DNA of 64,000 bases from Fimbriimonadia bacterium (GCA_041483895.1 JBGPGO010000008.1:32001-96000), one strand, 5' to 3'. Shown: positions 7,064-44,798, counted from the stretch's first letter. Numbers and translations are program-made. Notes: a model not told the origin generated them from the letters alone.

Positions 7064-7157
7064 CCCTTCACAGTCGCACTGTGAAGGAGTCTTCTTTGTG
7101 TTGGGGTCTGGGGTCCTCGGCGCCAGCTAGGATTCGGCCGGCGAGGACCCCAACACA
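7064..7157. repeat. Intergenic repeat cluster: family A palindrome (7064-7088) and family E ~60-bp element (7097-7157)
   Basis: CCCTTCACAGTCGCACTGTGAAGG followed by TGTGTTGGGGTC...GACCCCAACACA. Confidence 0.88.
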
Positions 7158-26546: not shown

Positions 26547-26777
26547 GGGTTAGGGTGGGGGTTCGTCCGCATCAAAAATCTATCATTCCGAAAAACCCCT
26601 GACAGTGCGAATGCCAGGGGATATCCGCGCCCCCGATGTATTGGGGTTTTTGGTGCTTGGCAGTCAACACGAATCGGCAGACGTGAACCCCAATACATCT
26701 GGGGGGAGTATCACCGTTGTGTTGGGGTCCTCGCCAGCCGCAACCGAACGAGAGCCAACCACCATAGACCCCAACAC
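26547..26777. repeat. Intergenic repeat cluster: family G half, family A variant (26596-26620), two family E elements (26635-26699 and 26718-26777)
   Basis: GGGTTAGGGTGGGGG; CCCCTGACAGT-GCG-AATGCCAGGGG; TGTATTGGGGTT...AACCCCAATACA; TGTGTTGGGGTC...GACCCCAACAC. Confidence 0.85.
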
Positions 26778-30122: not shown

Positions 30123-30713
30123 TTAGCCCTTTTTAGACGGTGTGGCTGTTACTTTTCCGCCCTGAACCTTCAGAATGGTCGCCGGCTTTTGCGGCCATTT
30201 CACTGGTTCGGAAGCATTCTCACCAGTATACTTATAGGTCCCCGCGCCATCCAGCCGGACATCCAACTGGCCGTTTGCGTTGATGTGATCGAACGTGCCG
30301 ACGGCATTAACCGTGAAGCTCGGACCGGTGCGGACCGGTGGGCCAACAAGCCCGCCGCTTCCTTGGGCGCCCACACCGCCTCCAACGACGACTGCGGTGG
30401 CTGGGCCCGGCTTGTAAATAAAAGTGCCCAATCCTTTGAGGGTGTACCGTGGTCCCGCCTTCGTGACCTGGAAGCCATCGACCTTGATGTATTGATCGTA
30501 ATCTGTCGATGCGAACGTGATGGTGACCGTACCGTCGCCCTTGATTTCGAGGTTCCCCGATCCGTCGATCAAGACCACGCCTTTGCCCGCCGCCCAAATG
30601 CCGGACGGTTGTATTAGGATTTTGTGGTCGTTCTTATGATCGGTCGGAGTTTGCGAATGTCCGATTTGGATCAGCGCCGCAATCAAGACTGAAATCGCGA
30701 TCTGGGTTTTCAT
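30123..30713 (-). CDS. Secreted beta-rich hypothetical protein (paralog 1)
   Basis: SD AAGGAGGA then MKTQIAISV. Shares VGPPV.TGPSFTV.A.G.FD with the next gene. Confidence 0.75.
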   Translation of the reverse strand: MKTQIAISVLIAALIQIGHSQTPTDHKNDHKILIQPSGIWAAGKGVVLIDGSGNLEIKGDGTVTITFASTDYDQYIKVDGFQVTKAGPRYTLKGLGTFIYKPGPATAVVVGGGVGAQGSGGLVGPPVRTGPSFTVNAVGTFDHINANGQLDVRLDGAGTYKYTGENASEPVKWPQKPATILKVQGGKVTATPSKKG

Positions 30714-30734
30714 TTTTGTCCTCCTTGTTCTTTG

Positions 30735-30766
30735 GTCACGGTCCAGTGACTGCACTGGACCGTGAC
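30735..30766. repeat. Perfect 14-bp inverted repeat between the two paralogs
   Basis: GTCACGGTCCAGTG-ACTG-CACTGGACCGTGAC. Confidence 0.8.
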
Positions 30767-30785: not shown

Positions 30786-31355
30786 TTATGGCTTCGGGTC
30801 GATCTTCAGGTCCGTGCCATTGGCGCTCCAGGGGTTGGCGGCGGTAAGTTTGCCGTTCAATCCGGTAAAGGTCTGATAGCTGCCTTCACCCGTCAATGTG
30901 AGCGCAAACTTACCGACGGCATCGATCTTGTCGAAGCTGCCGTAAGCCTTGACTGTGAAGGAAGGGCCGGTGTAGACGGGCGGTCCGACAGGTCCGCCGG
31001 GATTTCTGGTGATCGCGTCGACGGCGCTGTAGGCGCCGTGAACGGGCTTGACCTTGATCTTACTCTTCAGATTAAGGATCGCCTTCGGGACGATCACGCC
31101 GTGCCCTGTGAGCTCGATCGCGTCGCCGTTAATCTCCTTGACGACAAAACCTTGATGTGTGAAGATCTTGTCGAACTGGACCTTGGTCAGGCCTTGGATA
31201 TGTACGGTGCCATTACCGTCCAATGTGAGGTAGCCGGAGCCGTCTACCATGATGTCGCCTTTTCCCTTGGCAGTAACACCGGTTACTGCTGTTTGTGCGA
31301 TCGCGAGCGTTGTTCCAAGAATCGCTGCGATTGCGAGTGCGATATATCGACTCAT
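30786..31355 (-). CDS. Secreted beta-rich hypothetical protein (paralog 2)
   Basis: SD AGGAGG, signal peptide, paralogous to 30123-30713. Confidence 0.75.
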   Translation of the reverse strand: MSRYIALAIAAILGTTLAIAQTAVTGVTAKGKGDIMVDGSGYLTLDGNGTVHIQGLTKVQFDKIFTHQGFVVKEINGDAIELTGHGVIVPKAILNLKSKIKVKPVHGAYSAVDAITRNPGGPVGPPVYTGPSFTVKAYGSFDKIDAVGKFALTLTGEGSYQTFTGLNGKLTAANPWSANGTDLKIDPKP

Positions 31356-31513: not shown

Positions 31514-31560
31514 TTGATTTTTTCGAATTTTTTGTTATAATAGTAGACGTTAGTGTACTA
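31514..31560 (+). promoter_or_regulatory. Sigma70-type promoter with overlapping palindromic operator for imuB-dnaE2
   Basis: TTGATT (31514), 16-nt spacer, TATAAT (31536-41) with TG extension, then TAGTAGAC-GTTA-GTGTACTA (31541-31560). Confidence 0.65.
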
Positions 31561-32728
31561 TTACTTGTGTATTCTGTTTGCAGGGAGTGGCTACAAAGAG
31601 GAGTGGTTGGAAGGATGTCTACAGTTCACCGATGGGATCGAGCCCAGCGGCGGGGACTGCGCCTATTTTGACCTTTCCGGTCATCCGGATCCTTCCGAGA
31701 TAGCCGCGCGGTTGGCCGAGTTCCTGTCCGATGCCTCGGGCAGGCCGGTCCGATACGGCGCGGCCGGCTCCAAGTGGATCGCTCGCCTGGCGGCGGAATG
31801 GGAAGACGACGGCCTCGCTCTTTCGGATCCGGCGGCCTTCCTTGCGCCGCTTCCGGTGGAGTGCCTGCGCCCGATCGCTCCGGAGAACATCGTGCGGCTG
31901 CGCTTTTTGGGCTATCGCACGATCGGCGAGGCGGTTTCGATTCCGTTGGAAGTTTTGTGGCGGCAGTTCGATGAGGAAGGGTATCGGATCTATCGCGCCG
32001 CGCGGGGTTTTTTTGCCGATCCGGTGCGGGCGCTGTTCCCGCCGGAATCGATCATCGAGCGGTTCCGGTTCGACGGCTGCGTTTCGAATTGGGCGGATGT
32101 GGAAGGGGCGTTGCGGTTGCTGGCCGATCGGTTGGGCAAGCGCCTGGCCGATCGGGATCGGCAGGGCCAGCGCATGGTGATCGTTTTGGAGACTGGGGGC
32201 GCTCCCTCGCGTCTGGAGCGCATGTTCGCCCGTCCCATCGCCACCCCTTCCGCCGCCTTCGCGGCGATGACGTTGATGGTGAAAAACGCCTTTGACGATA
32301 CGATCGTCAATGAAAAAACAAAAAACAAAAATTTCATTGACGATCGCATCGTCAAATCCACTCCCAATGATGCGACCGGTCTCCTGACCGAGTCGCAAGT
32401 TCCTCCGGGGTCTCCTGACCGGACAAACGACGGGCGGTCAGGAGACCTAAAGAATGGTTGCGACTCGGTCGGGAGACCGGTCGCATCGATTGAGTCGCAC
32501 TGTGAAGGGGCCATCCGCGCCATCCGCATCCTGATGCCCGGCCTGGAAAAGACCGACCGCGCCCAACCCAATCTGCTGGAAAGCGTGCCGGAACGGAGGC
32601 GGAGGCTGATGATGGAACGCATCATCCGCACCTTCCGCTCCCGTTACGGCGACCGCTCCATCCGCCCGGCGCGCGAGGTCCCCGTCCCGCGGCGATTGCA
32701 AATCCTGCGAGAGTGGCAGCGTGGATAG
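31553..32728 (+). CDS. imuB: ImuB-like inactive Y-family polymerase (N-terminally reduced) with in-frame repeat insertion
   Basis: AYFDLSG, SKWIARLAA, FLAPLPVECL, LRFLGYRTIG, QPNLL clamp-type motif, RSRYGDRSI. Directly upstream of dnaE2. Confidence 0.85.
   Translation: MYYYLCILFAGSGYKEEWLEGCLQFTDGIEPSGGDCAYFDLSGHPDPSEIAARLAEFLSDASGRPVRYGAAGSKWIARLAAEWEDDGLALSDPAAFLAPLPVECLRPIAPENIVRLRFLGYRTIGEAVSIPLEVLWRQFDEEGYRIYRAARGFFADPVRALFPPESIIERFRFDGCVSNWADVEGALRLLADRLGKRLADRDRQGQRMVIVLETGGAPSRLERMFARPIATPSAAFAAMTLMVKNAFDDTIVNEKTKNKNFIDDRIVKSTPNDATGLLTESQVPPGSPDRTNDGRSGDLKNGCDSVGRPVASIESHCEGAIRAIRILMPGLEKTDRAQPNLLESVPERRRRLMMERIIRTFRSRYGDRSIRPAREVPVPRRLQILREWQRG
32291..32509. repeat. In-frame mosaic block 1 (in imuB): inverted family B pair, family C long hairpin (32369-32487), half family A
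   Basis: TTGACGATACGATCGTCAATGAAA / TTTCATTGACGATCGCATCGTCAA; GATGCGACCGGTCTCCTGACCGAGTCGCAA and its reverse complement; AGTCGCACTGTGAAGGG. Confidence 0.92.
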
Positions 32729-35700
32729 CCCCGCAAGGAAACGAATATTGGAGGGCTCCGCTCCGTCGGAGCCGCAGATTGCCGTCTGGCGCGAGGCGGG
32801 GCGGTGGTGGGACGGCGAGGCGTATCGCGAATTCCGCCGCTTCTTGGACGAGCGCGGCATCCAGCGGGAGAGCGTGGACGAATTTCCATCCCTCAGCCGG
32901 GCGCTCTCGGAGAGGATGGAGGAGCAGCCGTACGAGGAGGACCATCGGGAGGAGTGGGCCTTCCGCATGCGCAAGATCCGGGATGAAAAAGTCGCCCGCG
33001 CCAACGGCTGGCTCCCCCGCGACGATGCGACCGGTCTCCTGACCGAGTCGCAAGTTCTTGACGATGCGATCGTCAATGAAAATATTAAAAATGTAGGCGC
33101 GGGTCAGATTGACGATTCGCCACCGATTGCCGACAACCAAGACCCGCGTAACCCCGTTGGAAATTCCGTCCCCCTCGGATCAAAAAATGTAGGCACGGGT
33201 CGGATTGACGATGCCCCGCCGATTGCCGACAACCAAGATGCGATCGTCAATGAAAAAACCTCTCCCTTCACAATAGGGATTGTGAAGGGAGAGAAAAACT
33301 CTCACCTACAGCCAGATTCCTCGCAAGCTCGGAATGACAACTCCCCTTCACAGTGCGACTGTGAAGGGATAAAAAGCACCATATCGTATGTATCCATCCC
33401 TTCACAGTCGCACTGTGAAGGGGACAACGATGCGCCGGGGTTCTCGTCTACCGAATCCGTACGTCCGCCGACCACCCAGACCCCGGCGCAACCCTGTCTC
33501 CATGTGCTCAGTGGATACAGCTTCGGCAGAAGCTCCATGCTCGCCGAGGAGATCCCGGTCCTGTGCGCCGACATGGGTATCCCCGCCGTCCTCGTCGCCG
33601 ACATCTTCTCCCTGACCGGCGCGATGGAGCATTCCAAAGCCGCCAAAAAGGCCGGAATCAAACCGCTGATCGGCGCCACCTTCGAGATGGCCGAAGGCGG
33701 CGAGATCGTCCTCGTCGCCCGCACCCGGAATGGCTATCGGAGCCTCTGCCGCCTGATCTCCGAGTGCCACTTAGGCGAGCCGCGCCTCTTCCCCCTATGC
33801 ACCTGGGAGCGGCTGGAGCGGCACCGCGAAGACCTGCTCTGCCTCACCGGCGGGCACCCCGGCCTGATCAGCCGCCTCCTGCTCGCGCAAAAATATGGCG
33901 AGGCGAATACCGTAACGCGCCGACTGATCGATCTCTATGGCCGCGATAATGTCTTCATACAGATCGAGCGCAGCTACTATCCGTTCGAAAAGGCGCTGGA
34001 GGGGCGGCTGCTGGAGCTGGCCTCCCATTGCGGCGTGCGCCCCGTGGCCGGCGGACCGATCACCCATGCCAAATTCGAGCACTTCCCGGCGCAGGACGTG
34101 CTGATCTGTATAGATACCCTTTGCGCGATTGAAGAAATTGACGGGCGCAAGCCGGGCAGGAAACAGGGGCAAACGCAGGTCGAAGGCCCCCCTCGCCGCG
34201 CCCTCAACGCCGAGAGATATCTGCACAGTCCCGCCGAGATGCGCGCCCTGTTCGTCGACCGGCCGGATTTGCTGGAAAACACATGGGCGGTGGCCGAGCG
34301 GTGCGACCCATGGGTGATGCCGCCCCGGACGGAGCTGCCGAAGCTGTACCCGGACGAGTTCGCCACCCTGCGCGAAATCACCTATGCCGGCGCGCGCGCC
34401 CGCTATCCCAAAATCGGCAGCAGCCTGCACCGCCGCATGGAAAACGAGCTGAACCGGATCGAGCAACTCGGCTTCGCGGGGCATTTTCTGGTCGCGTGGG
34501 ATATGTGCCGGTGGGCGCGGGAGAACCGGATTCTGTTCAGCGGTCGCGGGTCGGTGGTGGATTCGGTGGTGGCGTTTGCTCTTGGCCTTTCCCGCATCGA
34601 CGCGCATCACCACAACCTGCACTTCGATCGCTTCCTTCCCGCAGATGGGTCCAAAAGGCCGGATATCGACATCGACTTCGAGGCCGCCAAACGCAACGAC
34701 GTGCGCGAATATCTGACGAAAAAATATGGCGAAGATCATGTGGCCACCGTCGGGGCGGTGGGGGCCTACTGTTCGCGGGGAATCGTGCGGGAGGTGAGCA
34801 AGGTGTTCGGCATTCCGCCGGAAACGATCGGCTATTTTGCCAAGCGCATCCACGGCGGCGTCAGCCCGGACAACCTGCGCGCCTCCCTCAAGGCCCGGCC
34901 GGAACTGCGAAACAGCAACATCCCGGCGGACCTGTTCGAGTGGGTGTTCGCCCTCAGCCCTCTTCTCATGGATGTGCCGCGAAACATGCGCTCCCATTCG
35001 TCCGGCGTCGTGATCTCCCGAACGCCGATCATGGACACGGTGCCGGTCCTCATCTCCGGCCTGGACTCCGTAAAAATTATGCAGTGGGACAAGCGCAGCG
35101 CCAAGCATGTGTTCGACAAATTCGACGTGCTCTGCCTGCGCGGGCAAGACGTGCTGGGGAGGACCCAGGAGCAGATCCGGCTGTTCGAGGATTTCGATGT
35201 GGAAGACATCTCGCTGGAGGACCCGGACACCTACGCCACCATGCGATCGGGGCATCTGATCGGCGTGCCGCAGTCGGCCTCTCCCGCGATGCGGCAGGCG
35301 CACGTGCGGCTGGGGACGATGGACCTGAAGGACGCCAGTTTGGTGCAGGCGGGCATCCGGCCCGGCGTGGGCGGGGCGGTGAAGATCAACGAATTGATCG
35401 CGCGGCGGCGGGGCAAGCCGTACAGCTTCCAGCATCCCAAATTGGAAAAAATTCTGGGCCACACCTATGGGATTATCGTTTTTCAGGAGCAGGTGGACCA
35501 ACTGCTGCAGGAGTTCGGAAACTATACGTCCGGCGAGGCGGAGGCGACGCGCGAGGCCATCTACGAGAAGCGGCGGGAGAAATACGCGGCGCAGATTAAA
35601 GAGGAGGTGATCTCGCGGGTACTGGCGCAGGGATACGCGCAGTCGGTGGCGGAGGAGGTCTATGATTTAGTTTCCGGATTTCAGGGATATGGGTTTGCGG

Positions 35701-37256
35701 AGGGGCACGCGCTGGCGTTCGCGGAGATTTCGATCCGCTCGGTCTGGTGCCAGCAGCACTATCCGGCGGAGTATTTCGCGGCGCTGCTGAACTCCCAGCC
35801 GGCGGGATATTACGGCCCCTGCACGCTGGCGAACGAGGCGCGGATTCGGGGGGTGAGGATGCTGCCGGTGGATGTGAACGCGAGCGGGTTGGAGTTTTCG
35901 GTGGAGGATGTGCGGTCGGAGATGGACCCTCGGTTGATCCTTCCTCGCGCCGGCATCCGCGTGGCCCTTCACCAGATCAGCGGAGTGTCTTCCGACACCC
36001 TGACCCGCATATCCTTAAATGGGGTCTTGGATTTCATTGGCGATCGCATCGTCAACATCCCTTCACAGTGCGACTGTGAAGGGATAGGAGATGTGTTGGG
36101 GTCCTCGCCTGCCGGATCCGACCGAATGCCAATAAGCCCAGACCCCAACACCGGCATCATCACCCCGGATTTCATTGACGATGCGATCGTCAATGAAAAC
36201 TCCCCTTCACAGTCGCACTGTGAAGGGATGGAGAGACTCCCTCCCCCTTTTTCCGGCGCTGCCCGTTCCCCTGCGCCGGAAAAAGGGGGAGGGTTGGGGT
36301 GGGGGTTTGAATTCTCGATGCGCCGGGGTTCACTGTTACCGACTCCTCCCGATTGCCAACAACCCAGACCCCGGCGCTATACCTCTTTCTTCGACTTCGT
36401 CGCGCGGGTGCGGCCGGCGCGGGACGAGTTGGAGCGGCTGATCCTGTGCGGCGCGCTGGACAGCCTCCACCATAACCGCCGCGCGATGCTGTGGGCGATT
36501 CCCTCGGCGCTCAACTACGCGAGCAGCGTCGCCCCTTCACAGTGCGACGACGATGCGATCGTCAATGAAAAAGTATCTTCCTTCACAATGGGGATTGTGA
36601 AGGAAGAAAAAAATGATGCGACCGGTCTCCCGACCGAGTCGCAAGTTTCTTCGCGGTCTCCGGACCGATGCGGCGACTCGGTCGGGAGACCGGTCGCATC
36701 TATATCGGCTTGCGACTCGGTCAGGAGACCGGTCGCATCCGTAAGCCCAGACCCCAACACCCTCCCCCTCACCAACACCGAACCCCCCATGCCGATGGAC
36801 GTGGCGGATTTTCCCGAGCAGGAAAAGGCGATCTGGGAGCGCGACATCCTTGGCATGGACGTGCAAAAGCACCTGATGGCCTGGGAGCGCGAGCATGTGC
36901 AGGCGCGCGGCGGCATCACGGGAGCGCAGGCGATGGCCTCCAAGGACGGGACGAAATGTTTCGTGGTCGGCCATCCGATCCGCCTGCGCTTTCCCCCGAC
37001 GCAAAGCGGCCGCCGCGTGGTGTTTTTCGATCTGGAAGACGAGACGGGCCTCTTAAATGTGACCTGTTTCGATGAGACCTATCAGCGATATGGGCACGCG
37101 ATTATCTGCAATCCCTATGTGACGGTGGTGGGCATCGCGCAGGCGCGGGACAACTATATGGGATTTTTGGCCGAGAAAATTTTCCCCTACCGCGCCAACC
37201 TCCGCAACTTCACAACCACCCTCCCGCTCACGATGGCAGATTTTCTCGTTAGGTAA
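32721..37256 (+). CDS. dnaE2: Error-prone DNA polymerase DnaE2 (ImuC) with N-terminal DUF6504-like domain and three repeat-derived insertions
   Basis: PHP domain (LHVLSGYSF), GRGSVVDS, RPDIDIDFE, KFDVLCL, YGIIVFQEQ, YGFAEGHA, LLNSQPAGYY, OB fold (FFDLEDETG). N-terminal WREAGRWWDGE. Confidence 0.93.
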   Translation: MDSPARKRILEGSAPSEPQIAVWREAGRWWDGEAYREFRRFLDERGIQRESVDEFPSLSRALSERMEEQPYEEDHREEWAFRMRKIRDEKVARANGWLPRDDATGLLTESQVLDDAIVNENIKNVGAGQIDDSPPIADNQDPRNPVGNSVPLGSKNVGTGRIDDAPPIADNQDAIVNEKTSPFTIGIVKGEKNSHLQPDSSQARNDNSPSQCDCEGIKSTISYVSIPSQSHCEGDNDAPGFSSTESVRPPTTQTPAQPCLHVLSGYSFGRSSMLAEEIPVLCADMGIPAVLVADIFSLTGAMEHSKAAKKAGIKPLIGATFEMAEGGEIVLVARTRNGYRSLCRLISECHLGEPRLFPLCTWERLERHREDLLCLTGGHPGLISRLLLAQKYGEANTVTRRLIDLYGRDNVFIQIERSYYPFEKALEGRLLELASHCGVRPVAGGPITHAKFEHFPAQDVLICIDTLCAIEEIDGRKPGRKQGQTQVEGPPRRALNAERYLHSPAEMRALFVDRPDLLENTWAVAERCDPWVMPPRTELPKLYPDEFATLREITYAGARARYPKIGSSLHRRMENELNRIEQLGFAGHFLVAWDMCRWARENRILFSGRGSVVDSVVAFALGLSRIDAHHHNLHFDRFLPADGSKRPDIDIDFEAAKRNDVREYLTKKYGEDHVATVGAVGAYCSRGIVREVSKVFGIPPETIGYFAKRIHGGVSPDNLRASLKARPELRNSNIPADLFEWVFALSPLLMDVPRNMRSHSSGVVISRTPIMDTVPVLISGLDSVKIMQWDKRSAKHVFDKFDVLCLRGQDVLGRTQEQIRLFEDFDVEDISLEDPDTYATMRSGHLIGVPQSASPAMRQAHVRLGTMDLKDASLVQAGIRPGVGGAVKINELIARRRGKPYSFQHPKLEKILGHTYGIIVFQEQVDQLLQEFGNYTSGEAEATREAIYEKRREKYAAQIKEEVISRVLAQGYAQSVAEEVYDLVSGFQGYGFAEGHALAFAEISIRSVWCQQHYPAEYFAALLNSQPAGYYGPCTLANEARIRGVRMLPVDVNASGLEFSVEDVRSEMDPRLILPRAGIRVALHQISGVSSDTLTRISLNGVLDFIGDRIVNIPSQCDCEGIGDVLGSSPAGSDRMPISPDPNTGIITPDFIDDAIVNENSPSQSHCEGMERLPPPFSGAARSPAPEKGGGLGWGFEFSMRRGSLLPTPPDCQQPRPRRYTSFFDFVARVRPARDELERLILCGALDSLHHNRRAMLWAIPSALNYASSVAPSQCDDDAIVNEKVSSFTMGIVKEEKNDATGLPTESQVSSRSPDRCGDSVGRPVASISACDSVRRPVASVSPDPNTLPLTNTEPPMPMDVADFPEQEKAIWERDILGMDVQKHLMAWEREHVQARGGITGAQAMASKDGTKCFVVGHPIRLRFPPTQSGRRVVFFDLEDETGLLNVTCFDETYQRYGHAIICNPYVTVVGIAQARDNYMGFLAEKIFPYRANLRNFTTTLPLTMADFLVR
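33021..33490. repeat. In-frame mosaic block 2 (dnaE2, between DUF6504-like and PHP domains)
   Basis: Family C (33024), B (33058, 33237), 56-bp direct repeat E-variant (33087-33142 and 33183-33238), A variants (33261, 33344, 33398), GATTCCTCGC..CTCGGAATGACA (about 33314-33339), E (33431-33490). Confidence 0.92.
36031..36377. repeat. In-frame mosaic block 3 (dnaE2 HhH region)
   Basis: B (36032, 36170), A (36059, 36203), E (36092-36151 and 36319-36377), family G perfect 21-bp stem (36239-36293). Confidence 0.92.
36533..36760. repeat. In-frame mosaic block 4 (dnaE2, linker before OB fold)
   Basis: A/B chimera (36533-36571), A variant (about 36576-36607), three family C copies (36615, 36674, 36709), right half of E. 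Confidence 0.92.
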
Positions 37257-44704: not shown

Positions 44705-44798
44705 GTGTCGGGGTCTTTGGTTTCGGCTGGAGCAAGGAGTTGCCGGACGTGAACCCCGACACATCCCAAAAATCCCTTCACAGTCGCACTGTGAAGGG
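44705..44798. repeat. Family E element (44705-44763) and family A palindrome (44774-44798)
   Basis: GTGTCGGGGTC...AACCCCGACACA; CCCTTCACAGTCGCACTGTGAAGGG. Confidence 0.88.

Follow-up and report, generated by a model that had tools for sequence, protein, structure and literature searches.

Four blocks of short palindromic repeats lie in frame within the imuB-dnaE2 gene pair of a Fimbriimonadia bacterium (GCA_041483895.1). The window, that is the whole 64,000-nt stretch of DNA analysed here (JBGPGO010000008.1:32001-96000; G000:C8:32001-96000 in our designation, G000 being the source genome), supplies all positions given without a contig name, counted within the stretch. We consider it probable, at roughly 0.65, that the blocks are lineage-specific arrays of the repetitive extragenic palindromic (REP) and REPIN (REP doublets forming hairpins) type, inserted in frame at loops and linkers, and that they are likely selfish insertions surviving as tolerated loops predicted to be disordered. 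The two genes, the blocks and the main elements within them are:

31553-32728, + strand: imuB-like gene, 391 amino acids (aa), Y-family polymerase-like, GTG start
32291-32509, + strand: block 1, an A/inverted A doublet, a B-E-B' composite hairpin and half a C unit
32366-32490, + strand: B-E-B' composite, REPIN-like, two inverted B units around an inner hairpin
32721-37256, + strand: dnaE2, C-family polymerase, 1511 aa
33021-33490, + strand: block 2, units B and A, two diverged K-type units, an A-D composite, the C-C' REPIN and a K-type hairpin
33342-33424, + strand: C-C' REPIN, an inverted pair of family C REPs separated by 25 nt
36031-36377, + strand: block 3, an inverted A, a C...C' pair around K and A hairpins, an H hairpin and a K-type hairpin
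36233-36310, + strand: H element, a long GC hairpin followed by a G-rich tail
36533-36760, + strand: block 4, half a C unit, an A-D composite, a B-E'-B'-B' group and half a K unit

In a MAFFT alignment with eight orthologues from the same order, the blocks appear as four insertions found only in the source genome and absent from 8/8 orthologues: ImuB aa 250-319 (nt 32300-32509, 70 aa), DnaE2 aa 106-247 (nt 33036-33461), DnaE2 aa 1100-1214 (nt 36018-36362) and DnaE2 aa 1272-1342 (nt 36534-36746). The same three DnaE2 gaps were seen in a search of 40 relatives. A preliminary description of the locus, made from the DNA alone, had placed the blocks where they are listed above, and the alignment boundaries fall within a few codons of those positions. 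It had also counted about 350 repeat-derived DnaE2 residues, a figure that the alignment lowers to 328, and had stated that a normal-sized DnaE2 would be left after their removal, as is indeed the case, with 1183 aa remaining compared with 1147-1262 aa in the orthologues (the imuB-like genes of these loci encode ~380-400 aa, one open reading frame (ORF) call being longer at the 5' end). At the insert sites the orthologues have short joints of variable length, and two of them (G037 and G039) carry unrelated short inserts at the joints of blocks 2 and 3. Block 2 lies between the N-terminal domain and the PHP domain of DnaE2, block 3 splits the (HhH)2 module, and block 4 falls between this module and the OB domain. 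The HHH_6 match is found in two stretches, the listed one (aa 1218-1255, positions 49-89 of the 90-position profile) being downstream of block 3.

The operon inserts comprise about 30 units from at least eight families, in mixed orientations. The earlier statement that they are built almost entirely of repeats holds for the hairpin families, which are real and occur genome-wide, but is too strong as a measure of copy number, since under strict similarity (at least three matches elsewhere in the genome) the multi-copy share of blocks 1-4 is only 70%, 40%, 43% and 81%. The remainder is made up of the loops of hairpins, K-type members that have diverged and, in block 2, a local tandem duplication of 96 nt (33087-33238). 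The arms of the B-E-B' composite (32369-32398 and 32458-32487) are 97% complementary, and the composite has 15 matches covering at least 75% of it, its own and the block 4 copy included (e.g., C27:4018-4145 and C5:14917-15051). It could also be taken for a core bounded by terminal inverted repeats, a criterion for miniature inverted-repeat transposable elements. The arms of the C-C' REPIN (33342-33370 and 33396-33424) are 100% complementary. For the H element, all four copies found (4/4) lie inside genes, namely dnaE2, a FAD oxidase gene, mutL and one gene start. The intergenic examples named in the preliminary description (7064-7157, 26547-26777 and 44705-44798) do hold C- and K-type hairpins. 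A scan against Rfam returned nothing at the gathering score; its 18 sub-threshold matches to eukaryotic microRNA precursors coincide in many cases on both strands at the same places, suggesting generic hairpins. A HIP1 or cyanobacterial origin, considered on account of GCGATCGC inside family A, was rejected, since this octamer occurs only 264 times and the closest DnaE2 loci in named records belong to Fimbriimonadaceae and Armatimonadota metagenome-assembled genomes (MAGs).

Genome-wide, the units are short imperfect palindromes present in many copies, as in the definition of REPs. Family B (GAT-GCGACCGGTCTCCTGACCGAGTCGC-A, 29-32 nt) has 130-151 copies (151 at up to 3 mismatches), family C (CCCTTCACAGTGCGACTGTGAAGGG-AT, 27-28 nt) has ~98-100, family A has 44-52 and family D, a loop variant of C, has 30-33, while K-type long-loop hairpins number 139 compared with 11 in a reversed-sequence control. 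The 151 copies of family B in the source genome compare with 0 in each of 40 relatives (including the unpublished G036), indicating that its expansion is specific to the lineage. The units also cluster. A partner is present within 150 nt for 114/148 B copies and 47/98 C copies; head-to-head pairs number 18 for B and 10 for C, tandem B pairs being commoner (50); and the composites A+C/D, C+K and B-hairpin-B' are found again at other loci. This clustering and recurrence suggest that the blocks were probably built by fewer events than some 30 units would imply.

Within predicted genes lie 51/130 B copies. Of these, 26/51 share a single open frame out of five, which encodes the peptide DATGLLTESQ, and none reads in the sole stop-bearing frame, a bias that may reflect the best-tolerated peptide. 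Family B also has a regional hotspot at C7:98000-133000, with at least 23 copies in ~35 kb and in-frame copies in the neighbouring genes for a POR/acyl-CoA synthetase fusion, DUF1638, RACo and FeoB.

REPs and REPINs are associated with HUH-type REP-associated tyrosine transposases (RAYTs). The source genome encodes six Y1_Tnp (HUH) proteins of three families, and one representative of each family scored above the cut-off (80) of the NCBIfam REP_Tyr_transpos model, at 92.6, 92.3 and 87.6 bits, in agreement with the REP-like character first attributed to the units. The gene at C5:229682-230248 (92.6 bits) is bracketed by family C hairpins, two to each side and oppositely oriented, the same hairpin as the C-C' REPIN of block 2, and so forms a REPtron at C5:229546-230506. 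The REPs flanking the other two RAYT families are not present in the operon: hairpins of the CCCTCAnnnGGnCCTCC type flank the RAYTs at C6:19328-20105, C27:26305-26983 and C21:31999-32780, and GTAG-tagged GTAGCCGCGGTTCCTCGTTCCGACC units flank those at C20:35901-36887 and C3:71936-72767. A GTAG/CGTC tag is found neither on B, which starts with GAT, nor on C, which ends with AT; GTAG occurs only on the REPs beside the C20 and C3 RAYTs. The number of RAYTs was considered as a cause of the repeat load and rejected, since Y1_Tnp genes occur in 34/41 genomes of the order, with six in the source genome and 0-9 in the others.

We propose that RAYT-type (HUH) transposases or another enzyme mobilise the elements as single-stranded hairpins. 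New copies would land beside or inside earlier ones, so that one tolerated seed could grow into an array, and copies that break the frame would be purged by selection. The operon may have accumulated most because the load there would be mostly cost-free, in a pair of genes that is probably SOS-repressed, non-essential and endowed with several long, length-variable joints. The inserts would then be translated as parts of proteins that still work. Of the three roles first suggested for the arrays (a tolerated sink, a regulatory device, or a mechanistic link between this polymerase and repeat spread), the evidence leans to a tolerated sink plus nesting, without telling the three apart.

The genome-wide distribution of the repeats was assessed with 2940 genes from our own codon-usage caller (2211 confident) and with repeat words defined as 16-mers with four or more genomic occurrences, two or more of them intergenic. 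A census at k=12 marked 10% of the genome and was dropped as noisy in favour of k=16; the raw k=16 ranking mixed in genes for protein repeats (WD40, beta-propeller, TPR) and multi-copy recombinases, which the intergenic criterion removes. Repeat words cover 5.22% of intergenic DNA and 0.32% of coding DNA, so that the repeats are mainly extragenic, as REPs are, and the copies in the operon are exceptions. Away from gene ends, they occur in 129/2940 genes and total 7290 nt, of which dnaE2 (595 nt) and imuB (174 nt) hold 10.5% in 0.17% of the coding DNA. Interior blocks of at least 40 nt were found in 62/2211 confident genes, 69 blocks in all, with one block in 57 genes, two in four genes and four in dnaE2, where the merge rule splits block 2. 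The operon holds 5/69 blocks where 0.13 are expected (Poisson P ~3e-7, post hoc), a within-genome excess of ~40-fold in blocks and ~60-fold in repeat bases. It is also the densest 6-kb segment of the genome, with 819 repeat nt compared with a 99th percentile of 339 and a median of 26, whereas the 4-kb bins flanking it are ordinary (16-113 repeat nt). Intergenic arrays of at least 300 nt number 7/634, a length that blocks 2 and 3 also reach.

As a statistical statement, then, the hotspot proposed at the outset is confirmed. Specificity for the mutasome is contradicted by similar in-frame mosaics in some 60 further genes, which span all functional classes. Named Pfam families are present in 55/60 of these other hosts, which include ffh, ftsY, era, trmD, alaS, a class II aminoacyl-tRNA synthetase gene, carB, purL, purA, argG, a hisA/F-type gene, aroE, grpE, nuoA, plsY, kdtA, mutL, genes for glycosyltransferases and ABC ATPases, and others; a few of the 60 are artefacts (TPR protein repeats, or ORFs extended at the 5' end). 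The insert in Ffh, for example, is 55 aa long (aa 92-146, between the N and G domains) and is missing in 12/12 relatives. In-frame repeat mosaics are a genome-wide trait, of which the mutasome operon is the clear extreme. Essential genes of translation and secretion are among the hosts: in-frame blocks of ~70-190 nt were observed in ffh (C5:120906-122387), trmD (C18:28473-29516), era (C5:14566-15669) and alaS (C16:32510-35455).

Both ORFs of the operon, of 1511 and 391 codons, run without a stop or frameshift, as originally described, and no block is open in more than one frame besides the one used. On a rough estimate, the chance that four independent blocks would all keep length and frame is ~1e-4. 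The catalytic residues D648, D650 and D652 (PDIDID) and K800 and D802 (KFD), whose intactness had been noted earlier, occupy invariant columns of the nine-sequence alignment. Since the closest orthologue is 63% identical and synonymous sites would be saturated, invariant columns were counted instead of dN/dS. In this leave-one-out test, DnaE2 keeps 288/297 columns that are invariant in the other eight sequences and differs at 9 (3.0%), at the low end of the range obtained when the same test is applied to the other sequences (1.7%-7.9%).

A dying pseudogene that collects junk, or mis-assembled repeats in a metagenome bin, could give a locus of similar appearance, and we regard either as very improbable. 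Both would draw on features of the locus and of the assembly: ImuB is short of ~65-70 N-terminal codons; no imuA or ImuA' partner lies beside imuB (in a comparison confined to the neighbourhood, the remainder of the genome not having been searched); and the genome (3.95 Mb, 57.9% G+C, from a sediment Armatimonadota) is a short-read MAG of 43 contigs, with ~2-7x depth in the runs compared and no contig that crosses a whole block. Set against this are the open frames and the low proportion of altered invariant DnaE2 columns. The ImuB loss, which corresponds to orthologue residues ~12-80 and lies at the N-terminus (31553-31620), is an in-frame deletion that spares the upstream motif, the start codon and the first ~11 residues, and the rest of the protein is confidently folded by AlphaFold2 (AF2; mean predicted local distance difference test (pLDDT) score 76, with 67-86 for the remaining palm-like part). 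The lost part we take to be approximately the fingers subdomain of the Y-family fold, after matching an orthologue to Dpo4. The orthologous loci likewise have no imuA beside the genes.

The assembly itself was assessed with sediment-metagenome runs, 20 of which contain part of the stretch, none of them listed as an RNA data set; contigs from eight were compared. The contig pieces listed from X1-X6, with 0-1 mismatches, bridge 6/8 junctions between unique and repeat DNA. For blocks 3 and 4 these include both ends; for blocks 1 and 2 only the right end is bridged among the pieces listed. No empty-site joint is present among the joints listed from the eight runs, whose contigs cannot show rare variants. 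The listed inter-block joints have short sides (20-33 nt) and join repeat copies, and they were not read as alleles.

AF2 models built from nine-row alignments cover blocks 1, 3 and 4. In DnaE2, pLDDT is 26-31 over most of aa 1103-1216 (block 3) and 29-39 over aa 1274-1349 (block 4), compared with 77-92 in the adjoining domains. In ImuB, it is below 50 at aa 255-316 (block 1), a segment preceded by a helix and followed by the last strand that is modelled with confidence in the little-finger-like part. The flanks of the three modelled blocks score 77-94. These models suggest that the inserts are likely floppy or disordered loops that the proteins tolerate, and, with the short variable joints of the orthologues, they bear out the earlier proposal that the inserts fall at linkers or loops.

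The blocks could instead have been selected for a function, with arrays that throttle or time expression of the error-prone polymerase through mRNA or single-stranded DNA hairpins, or that serve as flexible tethers between domains. Predicted RNA structure is in line with this for blocks 1, 3 and 4, whose minimum free energy (MFE) is far below that of same-length non-repeat segments of dnaE2 (z -7.5, -6.7 and -4.7), as are the frames preserved through ~30 units and the continued conservation of the native DnaE2 parts. The folding of block 2 is not distinct from such segments (z -1.2). The same units occur in unrelated housekeeping genes and in intergenic DNA; the absence of family B from 40 relatives makes the arrays young; and the aligned orthologues do without arrays, with at most the short unrelated inserts of G037 and G039. 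We find a selected function improbable.

Several observations weigh against tolerated selfish insertion as the explanation of the blocks. Stops are scarce in intergenic arrays too, 29-36% of whose frames are open at block lengths, so that an open frame is weaker evidence of selection than it appears. Low pLDDT is expected for segments that have no alignment partners, and with ~65-70 N-terminal codons of ImuB missing, the mutasome could be impaired already. Among the contigs of the eight runs none spans a whole block of this short-read MAG, and the runs may share a sampling campaign with it, making them support rather than independent proof. No RAYT was detected next to B, A, K or H, which limits the link to family C/D, and logos of 147 B and 99 C copies reveal no target-site duplication or conserved flank. 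Finally, the repeat density of the operon exceeds that of every intergenic stretch (819 nt per 6 kb, compared with 508 nt for the next), which tolerance alone explains poorly.

That a coding operon is denser than all intergenic DNA keeps alive the alternative of targeted capture, in which mutasome DNA is a preferred landing site for hairpin transposition and insertions arise there more often rather than merely being kept. This could happen if the DNA is single-stranded or stalled when HUH transposases act, or if the gene product contributes to the gap filling through which new copies become fixed. The excess of blocks (5/69 versus 0.13 expected) and the confinement of the peak to the operon, with its ordinary flanks, are as targeted capture would have it. 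So are reports and observations in other phyla, where DnaE2 of O. terrae, S. wittichii, R. palustris, E. litoralis and Jiella shows the pattern, and the view of Di Nocera et al. that the link with repair genes is non-fortuitous (PMC3733652). Yet mutL is the sole repair gene among the 60 other annotated hosts, and the housekeeping dnaE (C18) is not among the genes with an interior block of at least 40 nt. No motif common to the four insertion points is evident by eye, element orientations in the operon are mixed, and all sites are length-variable joints, as tolerance predicts. On balance, we consider targeted capture unlikely.

The link between REPs and DnaE2 or other repair genes is already in print. 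According to Di Nocera, De Gregorio & Rocco (2013, BMC Genomics; PMC3733652), REPs occur within genes of several species, many of them replication or repair genes; the intragenic GTAG/CGTC REPs are in frame, often as dimers or groups, and were suggested to act as flexible linkers, with a link to repair that was proposed to be non-random. The authors list REP-tagged DnaE2 from O. terrae (aa 934-971 of 1116), S. wittichii (166-246 of 1196), R. palustris (128-157 of 1153) and E. litoralis (175-203 of 1262), with inserts of 9-82 residues overall, 29-82 aa in DnaE2, and one site per DnaE2. Our case shares with these the in-frame palindromes within genes and the DnaE2 host. It differs in having three DnaE2 sites (328 aa) and one ImuB site (70 aa), with ~30 units of at least eight families, in that families B and C carry neither tag, and in that most hosts in the source genome are non-repair genes.

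Of 75 DnaE/DnaE2 loci of other phyla that were examined briefly, six were seen to carry private inserts of the hairpin type; at L063, L070, L104 and L120 the longest ORF was a GC-rich one in the wrong frame and was disregarded. In Jiella sp. (NZ_JAKQZG010000001.1), a 216-nt near-perfect palindrome (L081:4895-5110) lies in frame in DnaE2, at ORF residues 867-938, at a joint like that of block 3. Its RNA MFE is -133 kcal/mol, and the Jiella genome contains 83 matches to it; we regard it as an independent case of a REPIN-like insert. The private insert of another Armatimonadota MAG is only weakly multi-copy. A broader proposition is that the SOS mutasome is a preferred target of REP/REPIN-type transposition across phyla, through some mechanism connecting the transposition of single-strand hairpins with the error-prone polymerase locus or with the protein it encodes. 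We hold this to be doubtful. If it were true, the process would have advanced here until imuB-dnaE2 became the densest repeat locus of the chromosome with both proteins still readable.

Identification of the gene pair as imuB-dnaE2 appears sound from sequence comparisons. DnaE2 contains the Pfam domains PHP, DNA_pol3_alpha, finger, HHH_6 and OB, and scores 546 bits with the NCBIfam 'error-prone DNA polymerase' model, short of the 939 set as cut-off; a second dnaE, 30% identical to it, is on contig C18. ImuB aa 24-246 match NCBIfam Pol IV models with scores under the cut-offs, and its orthologues match Pfam IMS and IMS_C. The DnaE2 orthologues are 52-63% identical and always preceded by an imuB-like gene, which abuts or overlaps dnaE2 at all 8 orthologous loci of the order. 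Neighbours at these loci are SRAP genes, methylpurine glycosylase (MPG) genes or unknowns. In the source genome, the upstream minus-strand ORFs (30123-30755 and 30786-31355) match nothing in Pfam or NCBIfam and do not resemble the SRAP gene found next to the orthologues. Two further features belong to the locus:

31541-31560, no strand assigned: SOS-box-like palindrome TAGTAGAC-N4-GTGTACTA, overlapping the imuB GTG start
32740-32780, + strand: J hairpin, a fifth small repeat at the imuB/dnaE2 junction, covering dnaE2 codons 7-20

The J hairpin has 11 blastn-short matches elsewhere in the genome and lies in an N-terminal part that varies in length among orthologues. Palindromes of the type TAGTAGAC-N4-GTCTACTA lie 4 nt before the imuB GTG or overlap it in the source genome and at loci L019, L020, L024 and L025. 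A relaxed search of the genome returned three sites, one at imuB and one ~185 nt upstream of recA (C18:43059-43078). The palindrome is a candidate LexA box for the order, with LexA binding as a presumption from its sequence. Being shared with the orthologues and similar to the one upstream of recA, it suggests that the operon is probably SOS-repressed. The mRNA of imuB may be leaderless. G+C content is 60-70% in the native parts of the operon (31600-37250), 52-59% in the repeat blocks and ~41-55% just upstream, compared with 57.9% for the genome; the imuB-dnaE2 cassette may have been horizontally acquired.

Several known systems resemble the blocks in part. Rickettsia palindromic elements (RPEs), reportedly described by Ogata and colleagues in 2000, are said to be selfish and to lie in frame in many functional genes, including essential ones, at surface-compatible sites. 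They are single units of 100-150 bp in an obligate intracellular alphaproteobacterium, whereas the units described here are short and form tiled arrays as long as 470 nt in a free-living sediment member of the Armatimonadota; the likeness is one of behaviour only. Bacterial interspersed mosaic elements of E. coli are mosaic REP clusters that bind IHF, gyrase or Pol I. Our blocks likewise concatenate several unit types in alternating orientation with short linkers, but the E. coli clusters are extragenic. By description, the H element resembles the hairpin-plus-G-tail 'triplex motif' repeats (TM_ECO/BoxC/PIT), as it too is a GC hairpin with a G-rich tail, but it is merely one of several families in the blocks.

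For REPINs, Bertels & Rainey (2011, PLoS Genet; PMC3116915) describe inverted REP doublets that form hairpins, are extragenic and occur in clusters. Family C shares with the REPIN-RAYT system so described the inverted doublet (33342-33424) and a RAYT flanked by its own REPs. The differences from that description are that doublets in the source genome lie inside ORFs, that other elements occupy the spacers and that the most abundant family, B, has no adjacent RAYT. In-frame fusions such as RPE and BRE are reviewed by Delihas (2011; PMC3184786). None of the papers listed in a literature search on repeats in Armatimonadota and Fimbriimonas dealt with the subject.

In-frame REP insertion is a little-studied route by which selfish DNA lengthens proteins, and repair and replication genes were proposed as favoured hosts, without a test, in the 2013 survey. 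For annotation, these results are a warning that long 'low-complexity' stretches of MAG proteins can be mobile DNA. The imuB-dnaE2 operon is by far the heaviest case found, with ~400 repeat-derived codons at four sites from many families, accompanied by about 60 milder cases in the same genome. The locus thereby allows tolerance versus targeting, the effect of disordered inserts on a polymerase and its scaffold, and the growth of arrays by nesting to be measured.

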